From NCBI GenBank assembly GCA_964428725.1, contig CAYRYW010000011.1, forward strand, positions 144 through 64,143: 64,000 nt of DNA, read 5' to 3'. Positions 11,617 through 45,502 of the stretch are shown here, in pieces (the stretch's first letter is position 1; every line of letters starts with the position of its first letter). Position numbers and translations under genes: made by a program. The notes under the pieces were generated by a model. That model was not told where the DNA came from. It saw only the letters and a program-made list of their open reading frames with translations, and did not search any database. Source of the DNA: an uncultured Dehalococcoidales bacterium (GTDB lineage: Bacteria; Chloroflexota; Dehalococcoidia; E44-bin15).

Positions 11617-11620
11617 CGCG

Positions 11621-12991
11621 ATGGGGAAAATCCCGGTCCTAAGCGCAAACGACATAAAACGCCTGCAGCAAGTGTTGCGAGAGCAGAAGGACAAGGCGAG
11701 GACGCCATTCCCCGTCAATACCATCAATCCGCCTGCTTCGGTCGGCACGTATATCGGGTGGCCAACGTCATCGGCGGGCATTCCAGCGTTGACCTCGCAT
11801 GGAGCTGGGCCGGACGACGATGAACCTGGCTCAGGCGATTGCGACATCTACCGGGTCTACAAAGACCTGACGGGCACTGCCGTTGTTGAGGCAATCGACA
11901 TCGAAGACAAGGAGGTCTTCAATTTCTCGACCAGTGTGATTCCGCAAGAGTGGATTATCATTTTCAAGCAGCCCAATGGACGATGGGTTGTGCCTCCTCC
12001 ATCAACGAACACAAATACCGATCTGATTTGGTGCGTGGCTACCGCTGATTGGCAAGAGGGAACCGGCACGACGTGCGACGATCCCTACGTGATGGTGCGG
12101 CATGCGTCCAGGTGTGGCGTTGTCGAAGACCCTGGAGAAACACCATTTGCGGTCTATCTGCCAAGGAAGCGGGCCGAAGGAATCGGACTGGACCCATCGG
12201 TATACGAAGATGATATCATTTCGTACAAGGTGGATGCCGAGGGGAACAAGATATGCCAGACTCCATATCTATGGTCATTCATAGGCCAGATTATGGAATA
12301 TGGGTCTGTAAGTTACCCAGGGAAAATCCCCACTGGATGGGAAGTATATTCGGCCGGTACTGGCAGGACAACGATACAGCTTGATGCAGCAGGAGAAACC
12401 AACGAGCAGACGGTTGGGAATATTGATGGGTTTACCTGGCATGGCGCAAGCGAAAATGGACACCCAGCACACACGGCGCAACCAGCCCACACGGTAACTG
12501 CTCATGGCACACACACGCTAGATACGCACGACGCACACACTATAGCAGATCATGATGACCATCCAGACCACGACCATCATCCACTTAGCGTGGAATCGGC
12601 AATCGATGCCGTTGGAGGGGCGTCTGGTGTTGCTGGTGATACTACTGGATACACATCCTACGAGGACCCGGACAATCATAGGCACAGCATACAGCTAGGG
12701 GCAAGCGAGGTTTGGCCGGCGCCCGATGAATCGAGCGGCGCAACAGCTATTGGCGCAGGTACAAGCGATGCCGGGTTGTTTTCGCATTCCACGCACGTAG
12801 ACGGGCCTGGCACAGGCGTTGGGCTCGGGCATGCTGCGCACGCAGGGACCGCATTGACAGACACATTTGAGCACACTGGAAGCTTGGGCCACGGAGAAAG
12901 CAGTCCACACTTGGGGCTGTACAATGGTGGCTTTGATTCCGACAATCGCCAGAAATTCATTGTTGTGAACAGAATCATCCGAATCAAATAG
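11621..12991 (+). CDS. Tail fibre/baseplate protein with His-rich segment
   Basis: 456-aa ORF containing 'HGASENGHPAHTAQPAHTVTAHGTHTLDTHDAHTIADHDDHPDHDHHP'. Last large gene of the tail module. Confidence 0.45.
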   Translation: MGKIPVLSANDIKRLQQVLREQKDKARTPFPVNTINPPASVGTYIGWPTSSAGIPALTSHGAGPDDDEPGSGDCDIYRVYKDLTGTAVVEAIDIEDKEVFNFSTSVIPQEWIIIFKQPNGRWVVPPPSTNTNTDLIWCVATADWQEGTGTTCDDPYVMVRHASRCGVVEDPGETPFAVYLPRKRAEGIGLDPSVYEDDIISYKVDAEGNKICQTPYLWSFIGQIMEYGSVSYPGKIPTGWEVYSAGTGRTTIQLDAAGETNEQTVGNIDGFTWHGASENGHPAHTAQPAHTVTAHGTHTLDTHDAHTIADHDDHPDHDHHPLSVESAIDAVGGASGVAGDTTGYTSYEDPDNHRHSIQLGASEVWPAPDESSGATAIGAGTSDAGLFSHSTHVDGPGTGVGLGHAAHAGTALTDTFEHTGSLGHGESSPHLGLYNGGFDSDNRQKFIVVNRIIRIK

Positions 12992-12992
12992 C

Positions 12993-13268
12993 ATGGCTGG
13001 CACGGGGACAGAACTGAAAACCCTATTGCGTCGGTTTGGTATTCGTGCAACGGGTAGCTGTCAGTGCGAGAAATACGCCAAGCTAATGGACCAGCGAGGC
13101 CCGGAGTGGTGTAGCAAGAACATCGAATTCCTTATTGATGTACTGGAAGAATCAGCGGAGCAACGAGGATTGCCGTTTGCCAGGTTTGTGGGCAAAAAGC
13201 TGATACAAATAGCAATTATCAAGGCGCGTAAGAGGAGCGACACCTTATGCGATGGAGCTACGGAATAG
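12993..13268 (+). CDS. Hypothetical protein
   Basis: 91-aa ORF; its ATG overlaps the upstream stop. Confidence 0.4.
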   Translation: MAGTGTELKTLLRRFGIRATGSCQCEKYAKLMDQRGPEWCSKNIEFLIDVLEESAEQRGLPFARFVGKKLIQIAIIKARKRSDTLCDGATE

Positions 13269-13948
13269 CTACGGTGGATGAGCGGCTAGAGACTCTATTA
13301 CCTCCGACAATTGCATCATTAGCCAGGGCGGGATTCCATAAGCCTACGCTATTTGTCGATGGCTGCGAGGACCCAAGCAAGTACGATCATTTTCAGCTGC
13401 CGGTTGCCGCAAGGCGATATAAGGTGAAAACGAATGGACACTGGATGCTGTCCATCCAGGAATTGTACTATCGTAACCCGTGGTGTGATCGGTATGCGAT
13501 GTTCCAGGATGACATTCTCTGTTGCCAGAATCTTCGGGAATATCTGGAGCAATGGTATCCAGACAAGGGCTATTTGAATCTCTGCACGTATCCGGAGAAC
13601 GCCGACCGGATAGATGGCGGCAGTGGCTGGCATCCAGCGCCTAGAAATGGCAAAGGTGCGCAAGCCCTGGTGTTCGATCAACATTCACTTAAGGCGTTAA
13701 TGTCGGCGACCTATTTCTTTGATTGGGCCAAAAACAGGCGTACTGGTTTCAAAAACAATGATGGGGCTGTGTATTGCTCCCTCAAGCCTCAGGGCTACAT
13801 AGAGCATGTTCACATGCCGAGCCTAGTCGATCATACTGGCGCCGAAGGCAAGGGCGTCATGGGAACGCGCCACCAACCGGTCATCACGGCGTTTCCTGGA
13901 GAAGAGTACGACCCACTCAACAAGGACCAAGAAGGAGAGCACGTGTGA
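13247..13948 (+). CDS. Putative glycosyltransferase (GT-A-like)
   Basis: 233 aa with a 'MFQDDILC' DxD-like motif. First gene of a translationally coupled sugar-modification operon. Confidence 0.45.
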   Translation: MRWSYGIATVDERLETLLPPTIASLARAGFHKPTLFVDGCEDPSKYDHFQLPVAARRYKVKTNGHWMLSIQELYYRNPWCDRYAMFQDDILCCQNLREYLEQWYPDKGYLNLCTYPENADRIDGGSGWHPAPRNGKGAQALVFDQHSLKALMSATYFFDWAKNRRTGFKNNDGAVYCSLKPQGYIEHVHMPSLVDHTGAEGKGVMGTRHQPVITAFPGEEYDPLNKDQEGEHV

Positions 13949-14604
13949 AACGCTACAACCACGAACTGTCAGCGATAGACATCTTGGACTTGGTAGGTGA
14001 AGCACCTATCATGCTTGAGATAGGGTGTCACGAAGGCGCCGACACCATTCGGTTCTTGGAATACATGCCAGGAATACGGCTGTTCTGTTTTGATCCAGAA
14101 CAACGAGCAACCAAGCGATTCAAGCAAGCGGTGCTACCCGATGAGCGAGTAACTCTCTACGAGGAAGCGGTGGCGGACGTCGACGGCCCAAGAGACTTCC
14201 ATGCGTCGACGGGAAAGGCGGGTCGGCGGGATGATTGGGATTTCTCTGGCAGTCTGCGCGAACCAACAGGGCACCTTGCGAGATCGCCAGAAATAACATT
14301 CAAAGAGCCAGTGTCTGTGCCATGTATGCGGCTCGACACATGGTTTGCGGACCATCCGGAAATCGATAACATTGATTTCATTTGGGCGGATATCCAAGGT
14401 TCACAGCGGCTATTTATTGCTGGTGCGCAACACATCCTCAGTAAGACACGTTATCTGTACATTGAATCGCATGACCCGCCTCTTTATGCTGGTGAACCTA
14501 CCCAAGACGAACTGATTGATGAGTTGTATAGCATGTTTAGTCCTGTCGCCATATACAGGGAAAACATTTTGTTTGAGTCAATGACGGCGGCAAGTGTATG
14601 TTAA
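13945..14604 (+). CDS. FkbM-family SAM-dependent methyltransferase
   Basis: GTG start overlapping the upstream stop (GTGTGA). 'MLEIGCHEGADT' (motif I) and 'IDFIWADIQGSQRLFIAGA...YLYIE' are typical of the FkbM family. Confidence 0.6.
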   Translation: MKRYNHELSAIDILDLVGEAPIMLEIGCHEGADTIRFLEYMPGIRLFCFDPEQRATKRFKQAVLPDERVTLYEEAVADVDGPRDFHASTGKAGRRDDWDFSGSLREPTGHLARSPEITFKEPVSVPCMRLDTWFADHPEIDNIDFIWADIQGSQRLFIAGAQHILSKTRYLYIESHDPPLYAGEPTQDELIDELYSMFSPVAIYRENILFESMTAASVC

Positions 14605-14647
14605 GCGACCATTGTATTTGCGGAGTGGAAGAAGTAGGAGATATACT

Positions 14648-15391
14648 ATGCGTCTTGCCAAAGAGCTAATCGATTGGTATTACATCAATCTATCGCACAG
14701 AACGGACAGGCTTACGCATATCCGTGGGGAACTGGACAAGGCGGGGATTGCTGCGACACGTTTCGAGGCGTACAGGAAAGAGGACTACACGGGCAGCATG
14801 GATAATGTCAAAGCCATGCAGCATACTCCGGATACTATAGGTAATTGGCTGTCCCATACTGCGGTAATAGGGAAGGCGAGAGAGGGTCGAATTGTCGGGG
14901 TGTTGGAAGATGACGCGCTGATCTGTAGCGACTTTCAGGCACGGCTAGATTATATATGCAACGTCTTTAATAAGCCGTGGGACATATTTTTTCTTGGGGC
15001 AACGTTTCACGACGATCGTGGACAGTGGCATCCAGAACTAGGCTTTGACCATGAGTTGACAGATGTGCGTCACATAATCCGACTCTATGGGGCGTTTTCA
15101 AACCAAGGATATCTTGTTAATGGATACAGTGCCAACACAATCCTGGAAATGATGAACGACGTGATGCCGCATTCTACGGGGAGCGATCACGCGCTAATAC
15201 AGATACAGCCAAGGCTCAGGTGTTATGGCTTTGTGCCAGGGATGGTCTTTCAAATTGATAACCAATCAGATATCAGTAAAGGGATCACTCGTTTTTCTGC
15301 TTTCCTCAGGGGCCTTGGTCCGTATGCATGGACTGATACTCTAGGAGAATTTGATTATGAGTCCTGGGAGCGTGAACAATGCAAATCTTAG
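14648..15391 (+). CDS. Glycosyltransferase family 25-like (LPS/LOS-type)
   Basis: 'YYINLSHRTDRLTHIRGELDKAGI...FEA' is the N-terminal GT25 signature, with 'LEDDA' as the DxD-type motif. AGGAG RBS. Confidence 0.65.
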   Translation: MRLAKELIDWYYINLSHRTDRLTHIRGELDKAGIAATRFEAYRKEDYTGSMDNVKAMQHTPDTIGNWLSHTAVIGKAREGRIVGVLEDDALICSDFQARLDYICNVFNKPWDIFFLGATFHDDRGQWHPELGFDHELTDVRHIIRLYGAFSNQGYLVNGYSANTILEMMNDVMPHSTGSDHALIQIQPRLRCYGFVPGMVFQIDNQSDISKGITRFSAFLRGLGPYAWTDTLGEFDYESWEREQCKS

Positions 15392-16284
15392 TAACCGGTG
15401 TATCTGGTTTTATTGCGAGGGCGATTGCAGATGCACTGTCGGACGAGCATGAGGTATTCGGGCTCGCCCGTCGTGAGGTGTCGCCAGCAGGCTGGACATT
15501 CGTGCGAGGAGACGTGACGGAATATGGTAGAGTGCTCGAAGTGTTAGCGGATTATGAGATCGAGCAAATATACCATTGTGCCGCGAAATCGATAGTCAGA
15601 AACTGCATGAGAGACCCTATCGGATGTTTTCGCACTAATGCCATTGGCACATTGAATATCCTTGAAGCAGCGAGGCAGATAGGGCGAATAAAGGGTGTAT
15701 TATGCATTGAGAGCGACAAGGCCTATGGAGCCGGCGCGACACCATACACGGAAACGCAGCCACTCATGCCTACCAGCATTTACGAAGCGTCAAAGGCATG
15801 CGCCAGTCACTTAGTCCAGACATATCACAAAAGTTATGTAGTGCCAGCATTTAGTGTGCGGCCAGTGAATGTGTATGGGCCAGGCGACAGGAACAGCAGT
15901 AGAATCGTCCCGCGAACTATAAACAAACTAGCTAGTGGATTGCAACCAACTATCACCGATGGCGCGGCGCATTTCGTCCGGGAATTTATCTACATTGACG
16001 ATCTAGTGGAAACGTTGGTGGCATTGATGGGCAGAAGCCCATGGGGTGAAGTGTTCAATGTAGGAACTGGGCAGGTGTTATCGGTGCAGGACATGATATG
16101 GACGATCTGTAAACTAATGGGAAAGTCGGCAGAAGTAGAAGTGCAGAAGAAGCCACGTCTTCTGCGCGAAATTCCGAGACAGTCTCTATGTATAGACAAA
16201 CTAACACAATGGCTGCCACATCGACAACAGCCAGTGGCGCTGGAAGACGGCCTGAATAAAACGATTGAATGGTGGGCGCCATGA
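15379..16284 (+). CDS. NAD-dependent sugar epimerase/dehydratase (SDR family)
   Basis: 'ILVTGVSGFIARAI' Rossmann motif and 'YEASK' catalytic YxxxK; 301 aa. Confidence 0.85.
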   Translation: MQILVTGVSGFIARAIADALSDEHEVFGLARREVSPAGWTFVRGDVTEYGRVLEVLADYEIEQIYHCAAKSIVRNCMRDPIGCFRTNAIGTLNILEAARQIGRIKGVLCIESDKAYGAGATPYTETQPLMPTSIYEASKACASHLVQTYHKSYVVPAFSVRPVNVYGPGDRNSSRIVPRTINKLASGLQPTITDGAAHFVREFIYIDDLVETLVALMGRSPWGEVFNVGTGQVLSVQDMIWTICKLMGKSAEVEVQKKPRLLREIPRQSLCIDKLTQWLPHRQQPVALEDGLNKTIEWWAP

Positions 16285-17390
16285 ATGTTCTGTTAATGCA
16301 GCCATACTTCCAGAATGAGCCGAGGTCGCCGATAGCCATTTTGGATCTCGCTGCCTATGGGCGACAATTCGGCCATGTGGTGGAAGTGGAGTATCTGTCG
16401 GCGCATGCTAACTACGATGGTTTCGACGTTGTGGGAATCTCGGCTATTGCATTCAACAATGAGGTGCGTGAACAGTTGCGGCATATCAGGGAACACTATA
16501 AAGGCCGGATAGTCTTAGGGGGAAAATGTTGCGACACACTAGCGACAGAAGAGATAGTTCAACTACAGGCGATTGGGATAGAAGTGTTTACTTCACCAGG
16601 GGAATATTTATTTGCGAGAGAAGAGATAGATTATCAACACTATCCAGCGTGGAACGCATCGGACTTTGCTAGGCTTGATCCCAATAATTCGCACAATGAA
16701 GTAATGACAACCAGGGGATGTCCATATCGATGTAATTTCTGTCATAACACAGAACCGCGAATCAGGCATTTTGCACCAAGTAGGACTGTAGATATTTGCG
16801 AAATGTTGCTTAGCAAGTATCGTAAGCAATCGCTATTTTTCGTAGATGACGTGTTTGCGTTGGATGTGTCGCATATGGCGGCTATTCTAGATGAGGCTGA
16901 TCGCAGGGGGGTTGTGCTATCAGGGAAAACGACGTTTTTCTCGCACATCAGCCAGCTCGATGAAGAGCGGATAGAGGCTATTTCACGATACGATCCAATG
17001 CATGTGCAACTTGGCATTGAGAGTGGAAATGCGGACATGCTCCGTGCCATGGGGAAGACATTTTCGCCAGAGGAGGCAAGTAGGAAGCTCAGGATGCTAT
17101 GGGAACGGGGGATTCCTGTTGTCTGTTTGTTCTTGCTGGGCTTCCCAGGTGAAACCAAAGAGAGCTTGAATGATACAGTGGACTTTATCAGGCAACATGT
17201 ACAATATACGCTAGCATGTTGCGCGGGGTATTATCAGCCAGTGCGTGGCACGGTCGGATGGGGCTTGGCGGAGGCGAGAGTAGGTGAGATAGAGCCTAAA
17301 GGCTGGAACCGGGAGATATCGTATGTGGACCCAAACATTACTGGCGACGACCTAGAGGCGGCGCATAAAGCAATAGAGGAGTTGAATTGA
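16281..17390 (+). CDS. B12-binding-domain radical SAM enzyme
   Basis: 'TTRGCPYRCNFCHN' CxxxCxxC cluster after an N-terminal Rossmann-like (B12-binding) region. ATGA overlap with the upstream gene. Confidence 0.8.
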   Translation: MNVLLMQPYFQNEPRSPIAILDLAAYGRQFGHVVEVEYLSAHANYDGFDVVGISAIAFNNEVREQLRHIREHYKGRIVLGGKCCDTLATEEIVQLQAIGIEVFTSPGEYLFAREEIDYQHYPAWNASDFARLDPNNSHNEVMTTRGCPYRCNFCHNTEPRIRHFAPSRTVDICEMLLSKYRKQSLFFVDDVFALDVSHMAAILDEADRRGVVLSGKTTFFSHISQLDEERIEAISRYDPMHVQLGIESGNADMLRAMGKTFSPEEASRKLRMLWERGIPVVCLFLLGFPGETKESLNDTVDFIRQHVQYTLACCAGYYQPVRGTVGWGLAEARVGEIEPKGWNREISYVDPNITGDDLEAAHKAIEELN

Positions 17391-18253
17391 GAATGCAACG
17401 AACATCAGATAATGTGGTTATATTCGCGGCATCGCCAAGCTATTTCGATCACGCAAAAGCCGCAATGGTCAATTGTCGAATCGAGGGTGAATGGTGCGGA
17501 GATATCGCGTTAATAGTTCCGCAAGGAACAGATACTACCGAGTTTAGTGGTCGGCAGATACACATACTGGAAGGAACATCAGCAGACGGCTATTACCAGA
17601 AGTTCGATGTATTCTCGCAGTTCTTCAGGCAATGGGATAAGGCATTATATCTTGATTGTGATATTCTTATCCAGGGAAATATTGCATCAGTATTTGACAC
17701 ATTGCACAAGCGACGACAGCCAACCATCATTGCTGATCGCGAAGAAAATACTCTAGAGCATTGCTTCACCTTTTGGATCGACGAATGTAACAGAACACTC
17801 AAAGAGGAGGGTAAACCATTCAGGTCATCAAATACACAGTTGCATGAGTGGGTGTGGCGCACGCATGGACAACAGTGGCGGCAATACAATACGGCCATGT
17901 TGTTGTTTAGGCCTGATGACATCCCGTCGGACGCGATAGATCAACTGCATGAAATGTGTACCCGCATTCAGCCAATCAATACGCATTGCGTCCGTGGTAC
18001 TGACCAGCCTGTTATAAATCTTGTTTTTTACAACATGCTGTCCGATGTGATCAACAAGGAGGTATCGTGTTGGAGTTGCCCGAATGACAACACGAAAATC
18101 ATACACTATTGTTCCGGGTATGCACCATGGATAGATAAGCCAGACGCTGGGATGGATGCTTACGCTAACCCACAATTGGGTGAATCATGCCACGCAGTGT
18201 ATACTCGCAATCTTCAGCAATTTGATTCCATATTGCCAAAGGAGGACTTGTAA
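17387..18253 (+). CDS. Nucleotide-diphospho-sugar transferase (GT8-like)
   Basis: 'ALYLDCDILIQGN' DxD motif; 288 aa; start-stop overlap. Confidence 0.5.
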   Translation: MRMQRTSDNVVIFAASPSYFDHAKAAMVNCRIEGEWCGDIALIVPQGTDTTEFSGRQIHILEGTSADGYYQKFDVFSQFFRQWDKALYLDCDILIQGNIASVFDTLHKRRQPTIIADREENTLEHCFTFWIDECNRTLKEEGKPFRSSNTQLHEWVWRTHGQQWRQYNTAMLLFRPDDIPSDAIDQLHEMCTRIQPINTHCVRGTDQPVINLVFYNMLSDVINKEVSCWSCPNDNTKIIHYCSGYAPWIDKPDAGMDAYANPQLGESCHAVYTRNLQQFDSILPKEDL

Positions 18254-18802
18254 ATGCTGGACATGACGGACAGAGGCACAATGGCGGCCACTCTTCCTAA
18301 TGGCGGCGTGGTGGCGGAAGTTGGCGTGCAGCATGGCGATTTCGCCGACATGATCGTGCGATTTAACAAGCCACGAAAACTCTATCTGATCGATTGTTGG
18401 GAAACGCAATCCGTGGCGGATTATGGACATGATCCAGCAAACGTCGCACAAACACAGCAGGACGAAAACGAAAGAACGACTAGGGAACGGTTCAAAGACC
18501 ATGCGAATGTGGAAATAATCAAGGGGTACTCCGTTGAAGTAGCCGAGACATTCCAGGACGAAAGCTTAGACTGGGTCTATCTAGATGCCAATCATTTGCG
18601 GATTCGTTCTGACTTAGAGGCATGGATTCCTAAAGTGAAACCTGGCGGTTGGGTCACTGGCCATGATTATTGCATCTTTGATGATTTTATTATGGTGCAG
18701 CCTGTATTGGATAGGTTCGTTGAGGAATACGGCGCACAATTGCACGTTGTGACGAATGAAGACTTCCCTAGCTGGGCATTCAGGAAGCATGGACACAAAT
18801 GA
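18254..18802 (+). CDS. Class I SAM-dependent methyltransferase (TylF/Methyltransf_24-like)
   Basis: 'VAEVGVQHGDFA' motif I-like and 'WVYLDANH' motif. Confidence 0.65.
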   Translation: MLDMTDRGTMAATLPNGGVVAEVGVQHGDFADMIVRFNKPRKLYLIDCWETQSVADYGHDPANVAQTQQDENERTTRERFKDHANVEIIKGYSVEVAETFQDESLDWVYLDANHLRIRSDLEAWIPKVKPGGWVTGHDYCIFDDFIMVQPVLDRFVEEYGAQLHVVTNEDFPSWAFRKHGHK

Positions 18803-19608
18803 GTACGAGTTTTGCGATTACTGCATACAATGAAATGTCGCCACAGCGCGGCTCTGGCGCGAAAATACTTAGATGCCTGAAAGCAGCGCAAAATCATCCT
18901 GGTATTGATGAGATTGTGGTTGTGGATGACTGCTCAGAGGATTGTGATGGGTTGGAACACTTACTGCGAGGACAGGCAAAAGTATCTCTTTTCCGAAATC
19001 CGCACAATTACGGAGTCTTCGGGAATAAACTGGAAGCCATCGCCAGGGCAACTGGCGATTGGGTAATTACGTGCGACTCAGACAACAGCATGGATAGTAC
19101 CTTTATCGACAAGGTGCTATCATTAGCCACCGATCAATCTGTATGGTTATGTGCCAGTTTTGCGAGGCCGCGATTCAATTATCGGCCACTTGCGTCAGAT
19201 ACTCCGTATACATTGACTAGTATATCACAAATCGTGCCACACCCGATTTTCTGTTGCTTCTTCAACACTGGAAATCAGACAGTAGCTAGACGATCATTCC
19301 TGAATGTCTTTGGGCAATATCGTGGCATCAGGGCAGATAGGCAACTGCCGAATTGGCTGGAGTTGTCAGAACAGGACTTGCAATCAACATACTATGAGCA
19401 AGTCTTCGATGCTAATGATTCGTTTGTCTACAACTTGCTCTGGTTGCTTGCTGGAAATAAGTTGCGCATAGTGCCTGGCCTGGAATACGATCATTATTAT
19501 GCAGCTGGCGAAGAGGGCAACTATTTGCGGTCGCCACCTGAAAAGGTGGCACTTGGGCAGCGACTCTTGCAGGCACTGAAAACAGAAATAAAGAAACAGC
19601 ATGTATAA
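18799..19608 (+). CDS. Glycosyltransferase family 2
   Basis: 'FAITAYNE...', 'IVVVDDCSED' and 'ITCDSDN' are classic GT2 motifs. Confidence 0.75.
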   Translation: MSTSFAITAYNEMSPQRGSGAKILRCLKAAQNHPGIDEIVVVDDCSEDCDGLEHLLRGQAKVSLFRNPHNYGVFGNKLEAIARATGDWVITCDSDNSMDSTFIDKVLSLATDQSVWLCASFARPRFNYRPLASDTPYTLTSISQIVPHPIFCCFFNTGNQTVARRSFLNVFGQYRGIRADRQLPNWLELSEQDLQSTYYEQVFDANDSFVYNLLWLLAGNKLRIVPGLEYDHYYAAGEEGNYLRSPPEKVALGQRLLQALKTEIKKQHV

Positions 19609-20422
19609 TTCAGACTGGCTTATTGGCGAACATACCTATCGGCAATTTATTGAGGATTGTAGGCTTGCAGTGTCCGATCCTGTGTATTTCCCGGTCTTTC
19701 GCCAAATGCCAGGGATCGCCTGTGTCACAGAAAACAAGGACGTTGAGCACAAGGTATTGAAGCCGATCTTATCTGAACTGTGGAGGCATTCCCACACGAC
19801 ACTTGAGGATGCGGCATTCTTGCATGCATTAGACGATGTCGGAACACCAAGACGGCATCACATAACGCGCACGCTGCACGTATCACATACTCTCATACAC
19901 ACACTCGAAGACGTATGTGTCATTCGCGAATTTATGGGTGGCACTCTACACGGGAAGCACGTAGTGGAAATAGGAGGTGGATATGGGCTACTTGCTGCCA
20001 TGGTAGTGCATTTTCTTGAGCCAGCTAGCTACACTATCTACGACCTGCCGGAAGTGTGCGATCTTCAGAAGAAATATCTGCATCATGTAGGAATAGATTC
20101 AGTCAAGTTGTGTACGGATGCAACTATCTCTAATGTGTCTGATCTCGCAATAAGCCTTGATTCTATTTCGGAGTTGCCACTGGTACTACGCCAGACGTAC
20201 GTTGATTCTGTGCTCGACAATGCAGAAAGAGGATTTATCAGGTGGAATTGCACTAGAGCGGCAACTACCAATGTCCTTGCCGCTATGTATTGGCTGAGAA
20301 ATGCGTCATGCATTAAAGAGATCGGGCTCGACTTTTCCACAGAACAGGCCGCAGCGAAGTTTCACCATTCCAGGCGCACGAGTCATATATTTTGGGGCGG
20401 GAATACAACATGTCACGAATAA
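19601..20422 (+). CDS. Putative sugar O-methyltransferase
   Basis: 'VVEIGGGYGLLA' SAM-binding glycine motif; operon context. Confidence 0.5.
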   Translation: MYNSDWLIGEHTYRQFIEDCRLAVSDPVYFPVFRQMPGIACVTENKDVEHKVLKPILSELWRHSHTTLEDAAFLHALDDVGTPRRHHITRTLHVSHTLIHTLEDVCVIREFMGGTLHGKHVVEIGGGYGLLAAMVVHFLEPASYTIYDLPEVCDLQKKYLHHVGIDSVKLCTDATISNVSDLAISLDSISELPLVLRQTYVDSVLDNAERGFIRWNCTRAATTNVLAAMYWLRNASCIKEIGLDFSTEQAAAKFHHSRRTSHIFWGGNTTCHE

Positions 20423-21321
20423 TAACCATGTCGCAATTTGGCACCATGGGTAGAGCAGCAAATCAGTTTTTGCAATACGCATTTCTGAAGACATGGGCTG
20501 CCAAATATTCCATGGACTTGGAAATCCCGCCGTGGATAGGGAATACATTATTCGGCACTGTCGACACGCCTATAGGACGAACGCTTCCGCCATACCACGA
20601 GACTCCGGGTAACAGCCTGCTGCAGCCAACCTTGCCTAACGAGAATGATATCGACAATCGCGATTATCGCGGGTATGGACAATATCACACAAGTTTTTAC
20701 GGCGGTTATGAACTCTATCTGTCCGGTTTGTTCAGGCCGACATTGGATACAGAAAGTCGCCTGGTTGATGCACGCAAGCGATTGTTGCATGATTGTGACA
20801 TTACCATAGGCTTGCATGTCCGTCGAGGAGATTATGGCAGGCGTATCTTTCCACTAACGCCGATCAGTTGGTACGTCAACTGGCTGGAAACACATCTGCC
20901 ACGATTGACGGGATACAAGCTATTTGTAGCCAGTGAAGATCCAACCGTTGCGTCAGAACTGACAGGATACCACGTAGAGACAGCAGAATCATTGGGTGTG
21001 CAATACACATCGGAGCAATATGCACACTACAACTATCTTCGAGAGGACCTCAAGAGCGGAAATCCTGGAGATATAGATTGGTATCCGGATTTCTACTTGC
21101 TGTCGCAATGCGACATTATCGTAGGTGGAGCATCCACATTTTCGTTTGTTGCCGCAATGCTCAATCCGTTTTTGCAAGAGTACTGGCGCGCCACGCTTGC
21201 GGATAGGCAATTCGTACTGACCGACCCGTGGGACGCCTATCCATTTATCCGAGAGCATGTGAGAGATTACTCCCACATTCCTGGCATCACTGCTTCACCA
21301 GACAACCCGTACTGGAAATAG
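20410..21321 (+). CDS. GT11-like (alpha-1,2-fucosyltransferase-type) glycosyltransferase
   Basis: The 'GLHVRRGDY' motif is characteristic of GT11 fucosyltransferases. The N-terminal 'GRAANQFLQYAFLK' fits (GN.mFqya). Start chosen at ATG 20410. Confidence 0.55.
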   Translation: MSRIITMSQFGTMGRAANQFLQYAFLKTWAAKYSMDLEIPPWIGNTLFGTVDTPIGRTLPPYHETPGNSLLQPTLPNENDIDNRDYRGYGQYHTSFYGGYELYLSGLFRPTLDTESRLVDARKRLLHDCDITIGLHVRRGDYGRRIFPLTPISWYVNWLETHLPRLTGYKLFVASEDPTVASELTGYHVETAESLGVQYTSEQYAHYNYLREDLKSGNPGDIDWYPDFYLLSQCDIIVGGASTFSFVAAMLNPFLQEYWRATLADRQFVLTDPWDAYPFIREHVRDYSHIPGITASPDNPYWK

Positions 21322-21394: not shown

Positions 21395-21955
21395 TTAGAT
21401 CAATAGTCGCCGTCGTGTGAAGAACACAAGCCCAGCAATCCCCGCTAGGCCAGCAAGAAACGTGCTCGGCTCCGGTGCAGACACAGCCTCTCTGACAAGC
21501 GCATGCCCGCCAAAGCGATCGCCTTGCACCCAATCGGAATGTACGGAAGTGACGCTCCAGCCCGTATGAGCGTGGCCAAGTAATGGGTCTATCTGGCCTA
21601 GTGAGAACATCTGAATGTGTGCCCTAGGCCCATCGATAATCAGGACCACGGCTTCCTCTTCGGGTGTTCCCATCAGGTCAAACACAGTCGCCGCAAGAGC
21701 ACGATCTTCCTCATTGACGAGTCCTCCGATTCGCTCGAAATGGAACTTCTCCAGGAATTCCTGGAATTCCGATACCGTGGCATATCTCCATTCCGACAAC
21801 TCCACTTCGGGAGGTGTCAACCCTGCTGTCTCGCTCCAGTCGAGCCAATCAAGTCCCGCGTCCGTGTCTGTAGTGTATGTGCCATGGTCGATCATTTCAG
21901 CGGACGCATGGCTAACCGATAGCAGTAGTCCGACGAACACAAGTAGGCGTGTCAT
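21395..21955 (-). CDS. Secreted PEP-CTERM (exosortase-sorted) protein
   Basis: Signal peptide 'MTRLLVFVGLLLSVSHASA'. C-terminal 'PEPSTFLAGLAGIAGLVFFTRRRL' is a PEP motif plus TM helix plus basic tail. Start set at the ATG ending at 21955. Confidence 0.8.
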   Translation of the reverse strand: MTRLLVFVGLLLSVSHASAEMIDHGTYTTDTDAGLDWLDWSETAGLTPPEVELSEWRYATVSEFQEFLEKFHFERIGGLVNEEDRALAATVFDLMGTPEEEAVVLIIDGPRAHIQMFSLGQIDPLLGHAHTGWSVTSVHSDWVQGDRFGGHALVREAVSAPEPSTFLAGLAGIAGLVFFTRRRLLI

Positions 21956-22045
21956 GGTAACCTCCTTAGGGTGTCTGCTTACCACACCAGGCATGCAAAA
22001 AGTGTGCAGGCGACAACAGCCAACGCCAAACACAACACAACAAGA

Positions 22046-28104: not shown

Positions 28105-28345
28105 AGCGAGCAGGAAATAACCCGCTGCATGGTGCATGCCTTAGGGATGGATTACCCGGGCAAGCCGGTTCGAGTCCGGCGGCGGGGCTTACAGGGAGAC
28201 ATGCCAGTAGGGCATGGGAGGCGTCCTGCACGCCTCATGGCGAGAATAGCTACGGACGCAACGAGCCGTGTAGCACTCGCCAGAGTTACTCTCCGCCGGT
28301 CGGGTCGTTCACAAGGCGGCCCGGCCGGCATCCCCTTCAGTAACG
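28105..28345 (+). ncRNA. Highly structured non-coding leader upstream of the Cas12-like gene (tracrRNA-like or attP/tRNA-3'-fragment candidate)
   Basis: About 270 nt with no convincing ORF. It carries at least 6 consecutive stem-loops: GCATG-GTG-CATGC, GCCGG-TTCGAGT-CCGGC (tRNA T-arm-like), CATGCC-AGTAG-GGCATG, AGGCGT-CCTGC-ACGCCT, a long GGCGAG...CTCGCC stem and CCGCC...GGCGG. Strand is assumed. Confidence 0.3.
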
Positions 28346-28352: not shown

Positions 28353-29945
28353 ATGATGGCCAAGAAGAAACCGAAGCACGAAGAGAAAGAGTATGTCGGC
28401 GCGATCCGCGTGCAACCGGTCGGCATCCAGGCGGTAGATGGTGAAAGCCCGAAGGCGTTTCGCGAGGCGATGGAACCGATTGCCGTGGCCGTGCAGCAGC
28501 TTAAGAACGTGGCCATGTTCGCCTGGTATAGCTGGCACCGCAAAGTGGGCAACGTGCAGTTGGTGATGGACTGGGTCGACGAGATACTGGCGTGGGATCG
28601 CGAGGTTAAGCCGGTCGCGCAGAAGTTCGTGGCCGACACGCGGCAATACGAAAAAGACGCTGCGGCCTGGAAGAAATCGCCCAAGGGAACCCGTGGCAAG
28701 CGACCAACGAAACCGAAAAAACTCCATGCCGACCGGCCAAAGTGCCCGGTCCTTCCGTACCCGAAAGCATGTAGCAACGCGATCTATCACGAGGTCAGTG
28801 GGGCAATACCGCTACTCAACAAACGAGTGGTGGTGTTGGCGCTGAATCGGATGTTCAGCAACCTGAAAACACATCAAGTCGCCTTCCGGCCTGGGCAATG
28901 GAACCAGTGGACTGGATTCAGGGAATGGCACGTGATGCTGGCGGGGTATGGGCTATTCTCTCAATGCCACAAGCCGCAACCGATCCCGATCGATCGCGAT
29001 AATTGCACGCTGATCCCACCGGACGCGGAAGAATCACGTTGGCGGGCCTTGATTCGTGTCGATCGCGTACCGACGACGACCAAGGCAGGCAAGGAGGTAT
29101 TTCGTTCCACGCCATGGGTAGTGACGCTCAAGACTGGCGGACGGCATGACGCGAAGATTCGCAACATGCTCGAAAAATGCCACTCGGGCGAGTGGAAATT
29201 CTGCGGGTCGAATCTCGTCTGGCGCAACGGCATGTTCGACGTGGAGGTATCCTACAAGCAAGAGAAACTCGAACCGATCAAGGCCGACCCGAACAAGGTG
29301 GCCGTCTTGGTACCAGGGCGGAAACGGGGGTGGCGATTGCGGATCAACGGCCGGTCCTGGTGGCTGGGCGGCAAGGGTAGCGACCGGCTGGTGGGTGTCT
29401 TTCGTCGGCAGACGGCCGAGCGGAAGGCAACCTTCCACGCCTCGTACCGGCACGGGGGCACGGCCCGGCAAGGGCACGGGCGTCAGACGGCAATGAGGGG
29501 TTTTTACAGCAAGAAAAACATTCTGGCTAGGTACCAGCAGCAATACAACGGTCGGATTGTTCGCGAGGTAATTCAGCAGATGGAGCGGCACGGCGTGGGG
29601 ACACTCGTCTTTCGTTCGCCGTCGGGAAGCGTGGAGAAGACACGGTTGCTCTGTACGGCGGGGGCTGGTCGCAAGGGCGGATCGTGGCCGTGGCACCAGG
29701 TGGACACGCGATTGAAGGCGGTCTGTCATCGGCACGAATTAGTGTACGAATCGCCGCGTCGGAAGCGGCGCAAACGCGAGGGGTCCGGTGGCGCGAAAAA
29801 CCCCGGGACCGCTCGCAAAGTCGCAACGGCTGACGGCAACAAGGATTGGGGCGATCGGAGCAAAGCGAATGGGCGAAAGAAACGCGCAAACGGGGCGGCT
29901 CGACGCGACCTCTCGAAAACGGCCACGCAAAAGGCCGTGGGGTAA
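28353..29945 (+). CDS. Compact Cas12/TnpB-like CRISPR-associated protein, apparently RuvC-inactive and C-terminally truncated
   Basis: 530-aa ORF ending 18 nt before the first CRISPR repeat. WED-like and RuvC-like sequence patterns are present (KVAVLVPGRKRGW; GVGTLVFRSPSG; SWPWHQVDTRLKAVCHRHELVYESP), but the expected catalytic Asp and Glu are absent and there is no Zn-finger or RuvC-III. Lys/Arg-rich tail. The ORF itself is near certain; the family assignment is by eye. Confidence 0.5.
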   Translation: MMAKKKPKHEEKEYVGAIRVQPVGIQAVDGESPKAFREAMEPIAVAVQQLKNVAMFAWYSWHRKVGNVQLVMDWVDEILAWDREVKPVAQKFVADTRQYEKDAAAWKKSPKGTRGKRPTKPKKLHADRPKCPVLPYPKACSNAIYHEVSGAIPLLNKRVVVLALNRMFSNLKTHQVAFRPGQWNQWTGFREWHVMLAGYGLFSQCHKPQPIPIDRDNCTLIPPDAEESRWRALIRVDRVPTTTKAGKEVFRSTPWVVTLKTGGRHDAKIRNMLEKCHSGEWKFCGSNLVWRNGMFDVEVSYKQEKLEPIKADPNKVAVLVPGRKRGWRLRINGRSWWLGGKGSDRLVGVFRRQTAERKATFHASYRHGGTARQGHGRQTAMRGFYSKKNILARYQQQYNGRIVREVIQQMERHGVGTLVFRSPSGSVEKTRLLCTAGAGRKGGSWPWHQVDTRLKAVCHRHELVYESPRRKRRKREGSGGAKNPGTARKVATADGNKDWGDRSKANGRKKRANGAARRDLSKTATQKAVG

Positions 29946-29963: not shown

Positions 29964-31014
29964 GTGAAAACGTGTGGGGAGAGGGAGAGGGATTGCAGGC
30001 TGGAAAGAATCCTGCCTTCGAGTAAAGGATGCGATGTGTGAAAACGTGTGGGGAGAGGGAGAGGGATTGCAGGGTGAGTACGATCGTCCGGAAGACGGCA
30101 CACAAGGACGTGAAAACGCGTGGGGAGAGGGAGAGGGATTGCAGGCCCGGAAAAACTCCACTGGGGAGAACACGCTTTCGGGTGAAAACGTGTTGTGAGA
30201 GGGAGAGTGATTGCAGGCAAAGTGGTCGAACATCGGACAGACCTACTAATGGCAAGTGAAAACGTCTGGGGAGACGGAGAGAAATTGCAGGAGTCCTTTC
30301 CGAAAAACGTGGAAACGTCTGGGGAGACGGAGAGGGATTGCAGGGGCAGTCGTCTTGACTCGCTGCTCATTGCAGCTTCGGTGAAAAAACGTCTGGGGAG
30401 ACGGAGAGGAATTGCAGGTCGGCTTGCTTGCGATCGTTGGCGCTTCGTCGCACTTGTGAAAACGTCTGGGGAGACGGAGAGGAATTGCAGGTCCTGCTGG
30501 TCGCACCTACACACGAGAAAGCGTGCGTGAAAACGTCTGGGGAGACGGAGAGTGATTGCAGGGGGGGCTGCTGATGCCGTGTCGGTGGCGTGAAACCTTT
30601 GGGTAAAGTGAGAGGAATTGCAGGACCGAGTTAGGCGACGTGAAAACGTCTGGGGAGACGGAGAGTGATTGCAGGCCAGAGGCGGTTGTGTACAAGGCGG
30701 ATTCTGCCGGAGTGAAAACGTGTTGGGAGAGGGAGAGTGATTGCAGGCAGGAATGCGTCCGTCAATGGCTGCTGGTGGGCCGGAGAGTGAAAACGTGTGG
30801 GGAGACGGAGAGGAATTGCAGGGGGGGCTGCTGATGCCGTGTCGGTGGCGTGAAACCTTTGGGTAAGGTGAGAGTGATTGCAGGAAAAGCTACGTGTACT
30901 TGGCGAGTGTTGCGCTAGAAAGTGAAAACGTGTGGGGAGAGGGAGAGGGATTGCAGGGTTGTGTTGGTCGTGCGGCAAGTGGAAACGTCTGGGGAGACGG
31001 AGAGGAATTGCAGG
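29964..31014 (+). CRISPR. CRISPR array, 16 repeats (35-38 nt) and 15 spacers (15-39 nt)
   Basis: Repeat consensus is GTGAAAACGT(C/G)TGGGGAGA(C/G)GGAGAG(G/T)(A/G)ATTGCAGG. Repeat starts: 29964, 30038, 30110, 30182, 30256, 30309, 30381, 30456, 30527, 30590, 30640, 30712, 30787, 30850, 30922, 30979. All spacers are unique except S9, which equals S13. Confidence 0.85.
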
Positions 31015-31060: not shown

Positions 31061-31294
31061 ATGAAAAGAGCTAGAAAACAAATCAACCGCCGTTGTCCGT
31101 GTGGGAATCGTGTCCCACGCCCGACGGCAACATACTGTTGTGCCGCGTGTTCTCGCGCGGCGGATATTTTTGAATCGCTCAACGAAACAAAGGAGCCAAG
31201 TCATGGCAAAGAAGACAAGCAAACAGAAGCCCTACGCGAGACAATGGCAACGATTACAAGACCTCAAGCAACAAGCGGGCGCGAGCCGGTTTGA
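31061..31294 (+). CDS. Small zinc-ribbon protein candidate
   Basis: ATG 47 nt after the last repeat. 'RCPCGNRVPRPTATYCCAACSRA' follows the CxCG...YC..C ribbon pattern. Its 3' part overlaps the next gene out of frame, so the extent is uncertain. Confidence 0.3.
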   Translation: MKRARKQINRRCPCGNRVPRPTATYCCAACSRAADIFESLNETKEPSHGKEDKQTEALRETMATITRPQATSGREPV

Positions 31295-31784
31295 GCGGGC
31301 TACGCTCGCCGTAGGTCTATTCGATGATGTCGAGTGGCGTGAACACATGGGCCTGGCTGACGATCATCAGGCGGCGGACATATTGACCAAGGCGTTGGAT
31401 GATCTGGGGATTCCGTTCTTCGACCTCCGACAAATGCTTGAGGCGTTTCCGGCGGAACAAGACTGGCTAGAGATGACGCCCTTCGACATGCTCGTGGCGG
31501 CACAAGCACAAGAGGCCAAGCCCGAGCAAAACGCACCACCGAAGCCACCTACCGTTGTTGGGATCACCAAATATGAGGAAGTGTGCAATGAGCGAGACAG
31601 GCTGCAACGACGTGTAGAGCAGCTAGAATCGCATGACACACCTGCCTGTGTCGGGCCGTGTGACGTGTTGGATGCATTCATGCGCATAGCTGACGCGAAC
31701 CGGGACAGAGGCAACGATCCGCTGTTGCGCCCAATCTACGCGATCATCGATAGCGTGGCAGAGACGGCAAACACACCGGTATAA
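31203..31784 (+). CDS. Hypothetical protein
   Basis: Start after an AAAGGAG RBS; 193 aa. Confidence 0.55.
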   Translation: MAKKTSKQKPYARQWQRLQDLKQQAGASRFERATLAVGLFDDVEWREHMGLADDHQAADILTKALDDLGIPFFDLRQMLEAFPAEQDWLEMTPFDMLVAAQAQEAKPEQNAPPKPPTVVGITKYEEVCNERDRLQRRVEQLESHDTPACVGPCDVLDAFMRIADANRDRGNDPLLRPIYAIIDSVAETANTPV

Positions 31785-36474: not shown

Positions 36475-36717
36475 ATGCACGATACACGGATAACTGAGTT
36501 TCTAAAGGGAGGCTATGGGGACTGCTATGGCAATGTCAGAGGCTGTGGCTATGGCTTGGGAAATGGCTTGTGCTATGGCGATGGCTATGGCAAGGGCAGG
36601 GGCTATGGCAGTGGCAATGGCGATGGCTATGGCGATGGCGATGGCAATGGCGATGGCTACGGAAGTGGCCATGGCGATGGCAGGTGCTGGGGCTATGGCC
36701 GTGATAACGGTGCGTAG
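36475..36717 (+). CDS. Gly/Asp/Tyr-rich low-complexity peptide (paralogue 2)
   Basis: N-terminus MHDTRITEFLKGGYG after an AGGAG RBS; ends GYGRDNGA. Confidence 0.45.
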   Translation: MHDTRITEFLKGGYGDCYGNVRGCGYGLGNGLCYGDGYGKGRGYGSGNGDGYGDGDGNGDGYGSGHGDGRCWGYGRDNGA

Positions 36718-36731
36718 GAGCAATACATGTC

Positions 36732-37049
36732 ATGCACGATACACGGATAACTGAGTTTCTAAAGGGAGGCTATGGAAATGGCTATGGCAATGGCTGGGGC
36801 TGTGGCTATGGCTTGGGAAATGGCTTGTGCTATGGCGATGGCTATGGCAAGGGCAGGGGCTACGGCATTGGCAATGGCGATGGCTATGGCCATGGAGATG
36901 GCGATGGCTGGGGCGACAGCTATGGCAGTGGCGACGGCTGGGGCTATGGCGATGGCGATGGCCATGGCGATGGCGATGGCATGGGCTGTGGCGATGGCTG
37001 GGGCGACGGCGGAGGTAGTGGCCATGGCGATTGCTTGGTCCATTGCTGA
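36732..37049 (+). CDS. Gly/Asp/Tyr-rich low-complexity peptide (paralogue 3)
   Basis: Same N-terminus (MHDTRITEFLKGGYG) and the same 73-nt upstream junction as paralogue 2. Confidence 0.45.
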   Translation: MHDTRITEFLKGGYGNGYGNGWGCGYGLGNGLCYGDGYGKGRGYGIGNGDGYGHGDGDGWGDSYGSGDGWGYGDGDGHGDGDGMGCGDGWGDGGGSGHGDCLVHC

Positions 37050-42789: not shown

Positions 42790-43584
42790 ATGGAAAGGCT
42801 GAAGGAACTACACGAGTTATGGAAAAGGCTGGATAAGAAACGGGATCTCCAGAGCGCCGAAGCATTAGTCGCCGTGCGGAAACATGGCTACGCGCTGCGG
42901 TTCGTTGATTCGTCGCGACGGACGCCTGAGGTTATCTTAGCCGCCGTGCAGCAAGATGGAGAGGCGCTGCAGTTCGTTGATTCGTCGCAACAGACGCCTG
43001 AGGTTATCTTAGCCGCCGTGCAGCAAACTGGCGAGGCGCTGCAATACGTTGATTCGTCGCGACGGACGCCTGAGGTTATCCTAGCCGCCGTGCAGCAAAC
43101 TGGCCACGCGCTGCAATACGTCGATTCGTCGCGACGGACGCCTGAGGTTATTCTAGCCGCCGTGCAGCGAAATGGCTCCGCGCTGCGACACGTCGATTCG
43201 TCGCGACGGACGCCTGAGGTTATCCTAGCCGCCGTGCGGCAAAACGGCTACGCGTTGCAATTCGTTGATTCGTCGCGACGGACGCCTGAGGTTATTCTAG
43301 CCGCCGTGCAGCAATATGGCGAGGCGCTGCAATTCGTTGATTCGTCGCGACAGACGCCGGAGGTTATCCTAGCCGCCCAGTGGCAAAGTGGCGAGGCGTT
43401 GCAATACGTCGATGCCGAGGCGTGGAGACGGATACTGTCCGAGGAGGAGGCGGTCATCGAAATCACGGCACCCAAGTGGGCGGACATCGACTCTATCAAG
43501 GAGGCAGATGGCGGGTGTTGTGAGATCCGGCTTCGGCTAGGGCGTTGCTCCTCTATGAGGCAATTCACGCGACCCAAACAATGA
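42790..43584 (+). CDS. DUF4116-type tandem-repeat protein
   Basis: Eight 23-aa repeats with consensus 'TPEVILAAVQQ.G.ALQ(F/Y)VDSSRR', the pattern of DUF4116 repeats. Confidence 0.7.
   Translation: MERLKELHELWKRLDKKRDLQSAEALVAVRKHGYALRFVDSSRRTPEVILAAVQQDGEALQFVDSSQQTPEVILAAVQQTGEALQYVDSSRRTPEVILAAVQQTGHALQYVDSSRRTPEVILAAVQRNGSALRHVDSSRRTPEVILAAVRQNGYALQFVDSSRRTPEVILAAVQQYGEALQFVDSSRQTPEVILAAQWQSGEALQYVDAEAWRRILSEEEAVIEITAPKWADIDSIKEADGGCCEIRLRLGRCSSMRQFTRPKQ
42856..43413 (+). repeat. 69-bp tandem repeat, about 8 copies (coding)
   Basis: Near-identical units ...GATTCGTCGCGACGGACGCCTGAGGTTATC(C/T)TAGCCGCCGTGCAGCAA... Confidence 0.9.
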
Positions 43585-44758: not shown

Positions 44759-45502
44759 ATGTGTTATTTCAAATCTGCGGTGTGTGCCTACAACAGCACG
44801 ACCCGGGACGTCGCGGTGTACCTGTCGAACGAGACCGATTCGCACCACGCGATCCGGGAGGAGTATGGCTTGCAAACCCGGGATACCGACGGAATGGGGC
44901 GGTATCAGACGCCGGTGGAGTACAAGCCGGTGAGGAGCCTGATGGACGAAGCGGGCTGGGAGTTCCAGTTCGACGCGGGACGGCCGAACTGGTGGGAGGA
45001 CTGGATGACGCCGCGCGTGAAGAACCAGATGTTCCGCGCCGCGATGCGGCACTTCGACGGCAATACGCTCGAAGTCGATGGCGACCTGAACCTCGGATCG
45101 TTGACTACTTTACCGGAGGGTGTAACGCTCAATGCTGATGGCTACCTGGACCTCAGATCGTTGACGACGATCCCCGAGGGTGTAACGCTCAAGACCGATA
45201 GCTACCTGAACCTCGGATCGTTGACGACGATCTCCGGGGGTGTAACGCTCACGGCCGATAGCTACCTGGACCTCGGATCGTTGACGACGATCCCCGGGGG
45301 TGTAACGCTCAAGACCGATAGCTACCTGGACCTCAGATCGTTGACGACGATCTCCGAGGGTGTAACGCTCACGGCCGATAGCTACCTGGACCTCAGATCG
45401 TTGACGACGATCCCCGAGGGTGTAACGCTCAAGGCCCGTTCCATACGGAATGGCCGACGGTGGCTGTCGACTGCCGAGTACTTGGCAAGTATGAAGGATT
45501 GA
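44759..45502 (+). CDS. Protein with six ~20-aa LRR-like tandem repeats
   Basis: AAGGAGAAG RBS. Repeats have the consensus 'L(R/G)SLTTIPEGVTL(K/T).DSYLD'. Confidence 0.55.
   Translation: MCYFKSAVCAYNSTTRDVAVYLSNETDSHHAIREEYGLQTRDTDGMGRYQTPVEYKPVRSLMDEAGWEFQFDAGRPNWWEDWMTPRVKNQMFRAAMRHFDGNTLEVDGDLNLGSLTTLPEGVTLNADGYLDLRSLTTIPEGVTLKTDSYLNLGSLTTISGGVTLTADSYLDLGSLTTIPGGVTLKTDSYLDLRSLTTISEGVTLTADSYLDLRSLTTIPEGVTLKARSIRNGRRWLSTAEYLASMKD
45083..45433 (+). repeat. 60-bp tandem repeat, about 6 copies (coding)
   Basis: Units GACCT(C/G)(A/G)GATCGTTGACGACGATC(C/T)CCG(A/G)GGGTGTAACGCTCA... Confidence 0.9.

Follow-up and report, generated by a model that had tools for sequence, protein, structure and literature searches.

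The locus described here lies in a 64,000-nt stretch of contig CAYRYW010000011.1, the whole of which we refer to as the window. It comprises, in order, a gene for a candidate trans-activating CRISPR RNA (tracrRNA), a gene for a nuclease-dead Cas12f-like protein, a 16-repeat CRISPR array, an open reading frame (ORF) for a small zinc-ribbon protein, and an ORF for a coiled-coil protein. The candidate tracrRNA, a conserved structured non-coding RNA of ~115 nt, is at 28211-28324, the protein gene is at 28353-29945, and the array is at 29964-31014, all on the + strand. The protein has 530 aa and is predicted to be truncated at its C-terminus; the TAA stop of its gene ends at 29945, leaving a gap of 18 nt to the first repeat at 29964. 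An initial annotation of the same DNA had placed a 530-aa ORF at these coordinates, 18 nt before a 16-repeat array, and had read its product as a compact Cas12/TnpB-like protein that is catalytically dead. The position, length and gap are as it gave them, and the peptide motifs that it quoted are present where it placed them. We conclude that a phage here carries a derived form of a type V-F (Cas12f) CRISPR system, in which no adaptation genes were found and whose effector is predicted not to cut.

The homology of the 530-aa protein was visible only through PADLOC and profile searches. PADLOC matched it to Cas12u3 (6e-11) and Cas12f (2e-9); Pfam, NCBIfam and PHROGs returned zero matches, and as a single sequence against the PDB the protein found Cas12f chains only weakly (5e-5 to 5e-3). 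A profile built from 100 family members (A3) matched AsCas12f at 2.5e-39 (138 bits), SpCas12f1 at 1.3e-32 and OsCas12f at 9e-31; its match to the solved nuclease-dead Cas12f (dCas12f) of the sigmaE type (9n9c) was at 9e-17 (64 bits). Judged by these comparisons, the likeness to Cas12/TnpB proteins is one of true homology and not of chance. An AlphaFold2 model made with a 100-sequence alignment has a predicted local distance difference test score (pLDDT) of 87.2 and a predicted template-modelling score (pTM) of 0.78; a model made with three sequences was unusable (pLDDT 50). When this model was compared with the PDB using Foldseek, the top matches were all of Cas12f type (9e-18 to 2e-13), AsCas12f (8j12) being matched at 8.9e-18; dCas12f 9n9c followed at 1.5e-12. 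TnpB, Cas12k, Cas12m and Cas12g ranked lower, at 1e-4 to 1e-6, with individual values of 5e-4 for ISDra2 TnpB, ~1.6e-5 for Cas12m and ~1e-5 for Cas12k. The protein is thereby modelled with the Cas12f fold, laid out as WED, REC, WED and a RuvC core that reaches strand β5, with a basic tail at residues ~470-530. The compact Cas12/TnpB-type layout proposed in the initial annotation is borne out and is specifically Cas12f-like, the profile searches and the Foldseek comparison of the model both having found WED/RuvC-fold similarity to Cas12f.

Alignment to AsCas12f indicates that the protein has lost its active site. D225 of AsCas12f (GIDLG, RuvC-I) aligns to Val320, and E324 (IQMEDL, RuvC-II) aligns to Arg421. 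The claim that the RuvC-I Asp and RuvC-II Glu are replaced was essentially right, the Pro/Gly and Phe/Arg named for these positions being the immediate neighbours of Val320 and Arg421; mapping of the triad found no intact DED set. The alignment ends at about residue 365-375 of the 422 aa of AsCas12f, so that the zinc-finger TNB domain and the RuvC-III Asp, which we take to be D401, have no counterpart. The chain ends after RuvC strand β5 and contains no CxxC...CxxC motif, in keeping with the absence of a zinc finger and of RuvC-III noted at the outset, as is the basic tail: the last ~60 residues are rich in Lys, Arg and Gly, and AlphaFold2 predicts 482-530 to be disordered. The 365-aa dCas12f 9n9c has the same end point, with residues 172-363 of its chain being aligned. 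Among the features by which a type V-F effector is recognised, the protein has the Cas12f fold with WED, REC and RuvC, together with the sequence homology, and lacks the intact RuvC triad (D, E, D) and the TNB domain between RuvC-II and RuvC-III. It has all of those that characterise dCas12f in the broad sense, namely a Cas12f-like fold, RuvC substitutions and loss of the C-terminal RuvC-III part. As read from these alignments, the 530-aa protein is a dead, truncated Cas12f derivative.

By profile similarity, the protein is not an orphan, and its relatives form a large family predicted to have the same defects. An exhaustive profile search was seeded with its three closest relatives. At 50% identity it gave 588 clusters with E<=1e-3, of which 194 have E<=1e-30; the matches are nearly all full-length, with a median of 440 aa. 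The exhaustive search was required, since a word-indexed protein search returned only three close relatives, even with the 100-sequence alignment as query. All 150 aligned representatives of the 588 clusters lack the three RuvC acidic residues and the TNB domain. In these representatives the RuvC-I Asp column is occupied by R (50), V (15), S (14) and H (10), and also by W and F, and the RuvC-II Glu column by L (29), F (20), V (18), Y (18) and R (15), and also by C. We found no conserved acidic column anywhere in the family alignment. All family members terminate 10-60 residues beyond the strand that follows the W(D/P)W helix (strand β5). Given that the dead, truncated state is common to a large family, it is a conserved condition and not a recent accident.

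Related loci, designated by L numbers below, include one in a Thermoguttaceae chromosome (L005), one in a Lentisphaerales metagenome-assembled genome (MAG; L006), one in a Planctomycetaceae MAG (L007), and nine in IMG/VR viral contigs (L008-L016). The IMG/VR scans gave nothing with an alignment of the close family (A1), and a sub-alignment of the wider family was required. GenBank phages yielded no family members, and BFVD yielded distant TnpB-like proteins only. Arrays adjoin the gene in 11 related loci altogether; they flank it in L006, L008, L009, L010, L012, L013, L014, L015 and L016, with up to at least 16 repeats. In the two closest relatives (P0002 and P0003, with about 30% identity), the arrays begin right after the stop codons. 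There are at least three repeats after the gene in L001, two in L002, and a single repeat in L003. L002 (2115-2226) and L003 (1676-1711) have two repeats and one, respectively, next to an identical 455-aa protein; thus, array size varies between near-identical phages, down to one repeat. Two large viral contigs, L013 (364 kb; 9190-13200) and L015 (123 kb; 9240-13610), each have two tandem dead Cas12f paralogues, in regions with three or four copies of a tracrRNA-like RNA and several short arrays.

The system is also predicted to have a tracrRNA, which was absent from the initial annotation. Over the 200 nt upstream of the gene, the DNA itself is conserved across the window, L001 and L002, despite protein identity of only ~30%. 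A covariance model built from this conserved block (R1) scores 100.9 bits at 28211-28324 and has full-length + strand copies just 5' of the gene in L005, L006, L007, L010, L012, L013, L014 and L015. In an alignment of 16 copies, which was fitted to the covariance model and should be read with that in mind, 20 of the 30 base pairs have changed on both sides and the paired fraction of cells is 91%, as compared with 34-43% when the partners are slid; none of 500 shuffles reached the observed values. Rfam contains no family that matches this RNA. The predicted architecture is two 5' helices, a single-stranded tail that includes an anti-repeat, and a G+C-rich 3' hairpin (28295-28329). A search for a sigma-70-type promoter found none.

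The anti-repeat, AGTTACTCTCCG (28284-28295, + strand), complements the repeat segment CGGAGAGGGATT with one mismatch and two G-U pairs. This stretch follows the second helix (CTCGCC), is single-stranded, and varies between loci, being AATTCCTTTCCA in L002, ACTTGCCTTT in L014, GTTTCATTTCAA in L012, AGTCACCT in L013 and L015, CTGCCCA in L010, TACCTGA in L006, and GTTACCC in L001. In nine loci it complements the 3' part of that locus's own repeat and changes together with it. The mean duplex energy is -14.0 kcal/mol for cognate and -6.4 kcal/mol for non-cognate combinations, with the cognate repeat being the best partner in seven of the nine loci. The two positions at which the repeats of the window are polymorphic (GAGAG[G/T/A][G/A]ATT) lie opposite the mismatch and one G-U pair of the duplex, and the unpaired repeat tail before the spacer is conserved, as GCAGG (the form in the window), ACAGG or CAAG. 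It is because the tail of the RNA is complementary to each locus's own repeat that we assign it as a tracrRNA; an anti-repeat tracrRNA and an adjacent array are both expected of a type V-F system, and both are present here on computational evidence. In L010, a four-repeat array separates the RNA from the gene, and L013 and L015 have extra RNA copies, arguing that the RNA acts in trans and is not merely a 5' untranslated region or leader. One RNA copy in L015 (11446-11561) runs directly into GACTACAGG and guide-like sequence, and looks like a natural single-guide fusion. The chromosomal homologue, L005, has no array; the final codons of its gene (within 9320-9390), CATGAC-GATAGG, are the complement of the L005 anti-repeat plus a repeat-like tail, and this 6-nt match faintly suggests that the end of the gene may be a solitary repeat remnant.

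The array has 16 repeats of 35-36 nt and 15 spacers of 15-39 nt. Fourteen of the 16 repeats fit the 36-nt consensus GTGAAAACGT[C/G]TGGGGAGA[C/G]GGAGAG..ATTGCAGG, the remaining two (30589-30624 and 30849-30884) being degenerate; the 3' end, GAGAG..ATTGCAGG, is common to all 16. We read the array on the + strand, with the guide after the repeat 3' end ATTGCAGG, since the repeat complements the + strand anti-repeat and since repeat 3' ends are conserved in related loci. A unit consisting of a spacer and a degenerate repeat is duplicated (30527-30625 and 30787-30885, 94% identical). Duplication and decay, and not active acquisition, seem to account for how the arrays evolve. The repeats fall into subtypes by positions 11 and 20, repeats 1-4, 12 and 15 having G,G, repeats 5-9, 11 and 16 having C,C, and repeat 13 being a G,C mix. 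A 5-bp hairpin (CGTCT/AGACG) is possible only in the C,C repeats; the changes at the two positions are coupled, not compensatory. The first 20 nt of spacer S1 occur exactly in two unrelated JGI metagenome contigs (L017:152-171 and L018:916-935). We rejected these as targets, as the matches end at 20-21 nt and the flanks differ; because they stop at this length and share no flank, they are at about the level expected by chance for a collection of this size.

The wider window supports the earlier description of the locus as phage-borne. There are tailed-phage genes for a tail fibre, a tape measure protein, small and large terminase subunits, a portal protein, head morphogenesis and a capsid-like protein, and the host is probably a Planctomycetota-type bacterium. 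The early-region genes 5' of the effector gene encode a helix-turn-helix (HTH) regulator (23841), a Rad52-like annealase (24801), a 5'-3' exonuclease (25583) and NinG (27094), all within ~4.5 kb upstream, and a helicase is encoded downstream, at 34539. The initial annotation had reported that cas1, cas2 and cas4 are absent from the 64 kb; about 30 window ORFs compared with Pfam, PHROGs or PADLOC likewise gave no Cas match, and the claim holds to that extent, small ORFs not having been scanned exhaustively. Between the tail genes and the early region lies a block of auxiliary-like genes (13247-21321, and 21395-22033 on the - strand), which includes a radical SAM protein (16269-17390), a weak glycosyltransferase-like match (20392-21321), and, in the minus-strand ORF 21395-22033, a borderline match to the PEP-CTERM motif, just below the Pfam cut-off. 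Elsewhere there are coding tandem repeats at 36511-37011, 42866-43413, 45065-45436 and 45757-46033, with units that comprise GGCTAT hexamers, 72 nt (DUF4116 repeats, in ORF 42790-43584), 60 nt, and 12/24/48 nt.

Two genes follow the array on the same strand. The small zinc-ribbon ORF (CPCG...YCCAAC; 31061-31294, + strand) is the first thing after the array in most family loci, ahead of the next gene, and the next ORF (31203-31784, + strand) encodes a 193-aa protein whose N-terminal domain has no family match and whose relatives have a leucine-zipper-like coiled coil. Zinc-ribbon and ~190-aa coiled-coil genes follow the array in the same orientation in 9-10 of 14 loci (10 of 14 for the coiled-coil gene), with matching downstream positions in L002, L005, L009, L010 and L012-L016; the genes upstream of the family locus, unlike these two, are not conserved. 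The zinc-ribbon product has no family or PDB match, and searches with the coiled-coil protein returned generic coiled-coil matches only. These genes may be accessory genes of the system or may reflect a shared phage gene order. We considered the zinc-ribbon ORF as a detached Cas12f TNB domain and rejected this, as its profile has no TNB similarity and it has no Asp motif. In some relatives, the RNA and gene directly follow a gene for an extracytoplasmic function (ECF) sigma factor (Sigma70_r2/r4; L005:6564-7235 and L007:44-847), and in L012, a 129-kb viral contig, such a gene (6333-6938) lies ~3 kb upstream. Among the 318 ORFs of the window there is no sigma factor homologue.

In sequence and structure, the closest characterised proteins are the type V-F1 nucleases AsCas12f, SpCas12f1, OsCas12f and Un1Cas12f1, which are also miniature and use a tracrRNA and a CRISPR RNA (crRNA) with the guide 3' of the repeat, but which keep the catalytic D, E, D and the zinc-finger TNB domain that the 530-aa protein lacks. 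The 3' end of the Un1Cas12f1 repeat, which we take to be GGAATGCAAC, is similar to GGAATTGCAGG in the window. The initial annotation had placed the protein conceptually near Cas12k, Cas12m and the TldR repressors. All three come from the TnpB/Cas12 lineage and are natural proteins that bind DNA under RNA guidance and leave the target uncut, as we predict here, and TldR proteins are also phage-encoded and C-terminally truncated. Nonetheless, TldR proteins descend directly from TnpB and use one guide RNA that overlaps the 3' end of the gene, with no array, whereas the window protein is nearest to Cas12f (9e-18, versus 5e-4 for ISDra2 TnpB) and has an array and a tracrRNA. Cas12m (type V-M) is ~600 aa long, retains the TNB domain and part of the RuvC site, works with a crRNA only, which it processes itself, and is found mostly on plasmids; the window protein has no TNB domain, has a tracrRNA, and matches Cas12m at only ~1.6e-5 in Foldseek. 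Cas12k belongs to CRISPR-associated transposons of type V-K, with Tn7-like tnsB, tnsC and tniQ, whereas the neighbours in the window are phage recombination and replication genes, and the Foldseek match is at ~1e-5. The closest named concept is instead the nuclease-dead, truncated Cas12f, dCas12f (PMC10691335; PMC13472631).

Inactivated branches within Cas12f and V-U43/44 have been catalogued, with a proposed scenario that leads from loss of RuvC-III to array shrinkage, then to fusion of half a repeat to the tracrRNA, and then to sigma-associated proteins (Altae-Tran et al., 2023, PNAS; PMC10691335). Subsequently, dCas12f-sigmaE was characterised (Hoffmann/Wiegand et al., 2026, Nature; PMC13472631), and a 'distinct cluster' of truncated dCas12f beside CRISPR arrays, with covarying upstream RNAs, was described in Bacteroidota (Extended Data Fig. 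1a,b of the same paper). The window locus has in common with this cluster, and with the inactivated branches, a Cas12f-like fold, RuvC mutations and a C-terminal truncation that removes RuvC-III, together with an adjacent array, a covarying upstream non-coding RNA and predicted binding without cutting, the comparison with the cluster being one of architecture only. Because it has the published architecture of the dCas12f cluster, the window locus is a phage-borne variant of the recently described dCas12f and not a new kind of system. The published example is a chromosomal Chitinophagaceae (Bacteroidota) locus with a guide that matches an efflux-pump promoter, whereas the family described here is found in tailed phages and prophages of Planctomycetota and Lentisphaerales and has long arrays, a separate tracrRNA and two conserved downstream genes; our search of the literature found no description of this phage-borne family from Planctomycetota and Lentisphaerales, of its separate tracrRNA, of its long arrays or of its conserved downstream genes. 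The dCas12f-sigmaE of Flagellimonas taeanensis (9n9c) likewise has a Cas12f-like fold, a dead RuvC and an end just after RuvC strand β5, and, like it, some relatives of the window protein adjoin ECF sigma genes. However, the operon of dCas12f-sigmaE includes a gene for an ECF sigma factor (rpoE, which has a C-terminal extension) and usually an HTH gene, whereas the window has neither a sigma nor an HTH partner. Furthermore, dCas12f-sigmaE uses a chimeric single guide, with no tracrRNA or array, as opposed to the 16-repeat array and separate anti-repeat RNA of the window, the fused form being seen only in L015. The family profile is also far nearer to the nuclease AsCas12f than to 9n9c, scoring 138 and 64 bits, respectively.

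The reading that we favour, to which we assign a probability of roughly 70%, is that the tracrRNA and crRNA would guide the protein to bind DNA without cleaving it, leading to silencing or to recruitment. We propose that the array is transcribed together with the effector gene, as would be expected from the gap of only 18 nt, and that each repeat pairs, through its 3' part, with the tracrRNA. The protein, probably dimeric like Cas12f, would load the tracrRNA:crRNA duplex, and the complex would bind DNA that matches ~20 nt after the repeat tail GCAGG, beside a protospacer-adjacent motif, holding the R-loop uncut. The most likely outcome would be a roadblock to transcription or replication of the target, the way in which Cas12m, TldR and engineered dCas12f act. 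Given that the phage carries 15 different spacers, the targets are likely to be rival phages, other mobile elements or host genes. Since the gene is in the early recombination/replication module, we expect the system to be at work early during infection, or from a prophage; one relative is in a chromosome, that of the Thermoguttaceae locus L005. Several observations weigh against guided binding and silencing as proposed. No spacer target was found in the window or related loci, in 50,697 GenBank phages (searched with all long spacers), or in exact scans of IMG/VR with four spacers. The anti-repeat duplex is short, at 7-12 bp; the array could be decaying, its repeats being unusually heterogeneous and several of its spacers only 15-27 nt long. 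Lastly, given the ECF sigma neighbours of some relatives and the two conserved downstream genes, the outcome could be something besides repression.

Indeed, the fact that some relatives adjoin ECF sigma factor genes means that repression is not the sole possible outcome. Rather than a repressor, the dead Cas12f could be an RNA-guided recruiter or activator that brings a sigma factor, or the zinc-ribbon and coiled-coil proteins, to the target, such that genes are switched on or another activity is loaded there. There is published precedent in the dCas12f-sigmaE of Bacteroidota (PMC13472631), ECF sigma genes directly precede the RNA and gene in L005 and L007, one lies 3 kb upstream in L012, and it is the two downstream genes that are conserved (9-10 of 14 loci), not those upstream. 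We nonetheless consider this rather unlikely, as the window has no sigma factor homologue, the downstream proteins have no recognisable function and may be conserved simply through shared phage gene order, and long, diverse arrays suit interference better than the control of a few promoters. A phage-encoded protein that is dead and retains its RNA-binding parts might also be an anti-CRISPR decoy that sequesters crRNA or tracrRNA from a type V-F system of the host, or occupies the targets of that system, as proposed for phage-encoded RuvC-dead Cas9 (PMC11656645; PMC12669027); in Planctomycetota, type V systems occur comparatively often (PMC12669027). However, a pure decoy would have no need of its own co-evolving tracrRNA or of arrays of up to at least 16 repeats, and we saw no host V-F system with a matching repeat, making this explanation very improbable.

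We give slightly less credence still to the idea that the protein remains a nuclease, through an unrecognised active site or with the missing C-terminal part acting in trans, such as a detached TNB domain encoded by the zinc-ribbon ORF. Rearranged RuvC sites do exist among TnpB relatives (PMC10691335), and almost all loci have a small zinc-ribbon ORF after the array, but all three acidic positions are lost, the family has no alternative conserved acidic residues, and the zinc-ribbon profile has neither similarity to the Cas12f TNB domain nor an Asp motif. Least probable of all is a decaying, functionless relic of a Cas12f locus. The heterogeneous repeats, the truncation of some spacers, the duplication of one spacer and the failure to find adaptation genes would be in keeping with decay; by contrast, the hundreds of diverged full-length relatives with the same architecture, the high confidence with which the fold is predicted (pLDDT 87.2), and the compensatory changes in both the RNA helices and the anti-repeat:repeat pairing would not.

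Few natural RNA-guided proteins are known that bind DNA and leave it uncut (Cas12k, Cas12m, Cas12c, TldR and dCas12f-sigmaE), and each has revealed a new use of CRISPR-type targeting. The family described here comprises hundreds of 50%-identity clusters of compact proteins (~440 aa; 530 aa in the window), from phages of poorly studied bacteria; it is uncharacterised and mechanistically tractable, and it keeps array and tracrRNA together. It is also a candidate source of miniature, naturally dead scaffolds for CRISPR interference and activation tools. The family appears to document steps between a Cas12f nuclease and a sigma-coupled factor, with loss of RuvC-III, arrays of as little as one repeat, and fusion of tracrRNA to repeat. 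A broader proposal, which we put forward tentatively and regard as doubtful, is that phages of Planctomycetota and Lentisphaerales carry a widespread, self-contained and programmable regulator cassette, made up of the tracrRNA, the dead Cas12f, a multi-spacer array and the zinc-ribbon and coiled-coil proteins, in which the downstream proteins would be new effector partners and control of host or rival-phage genes would be multiplexed and extend beyond a roadblock. Under the same proposal, the family would be a living intermediate between Cas12f nucleases and sigma-coupled dCas12f, given that some members adjoin ECF sigma genes or carry fused single guides. More generally, the family allows a direct test of the uses to which phages may put programmable DNA binding, whether exclusion of rival phages, reprogramming of the host, or activation.

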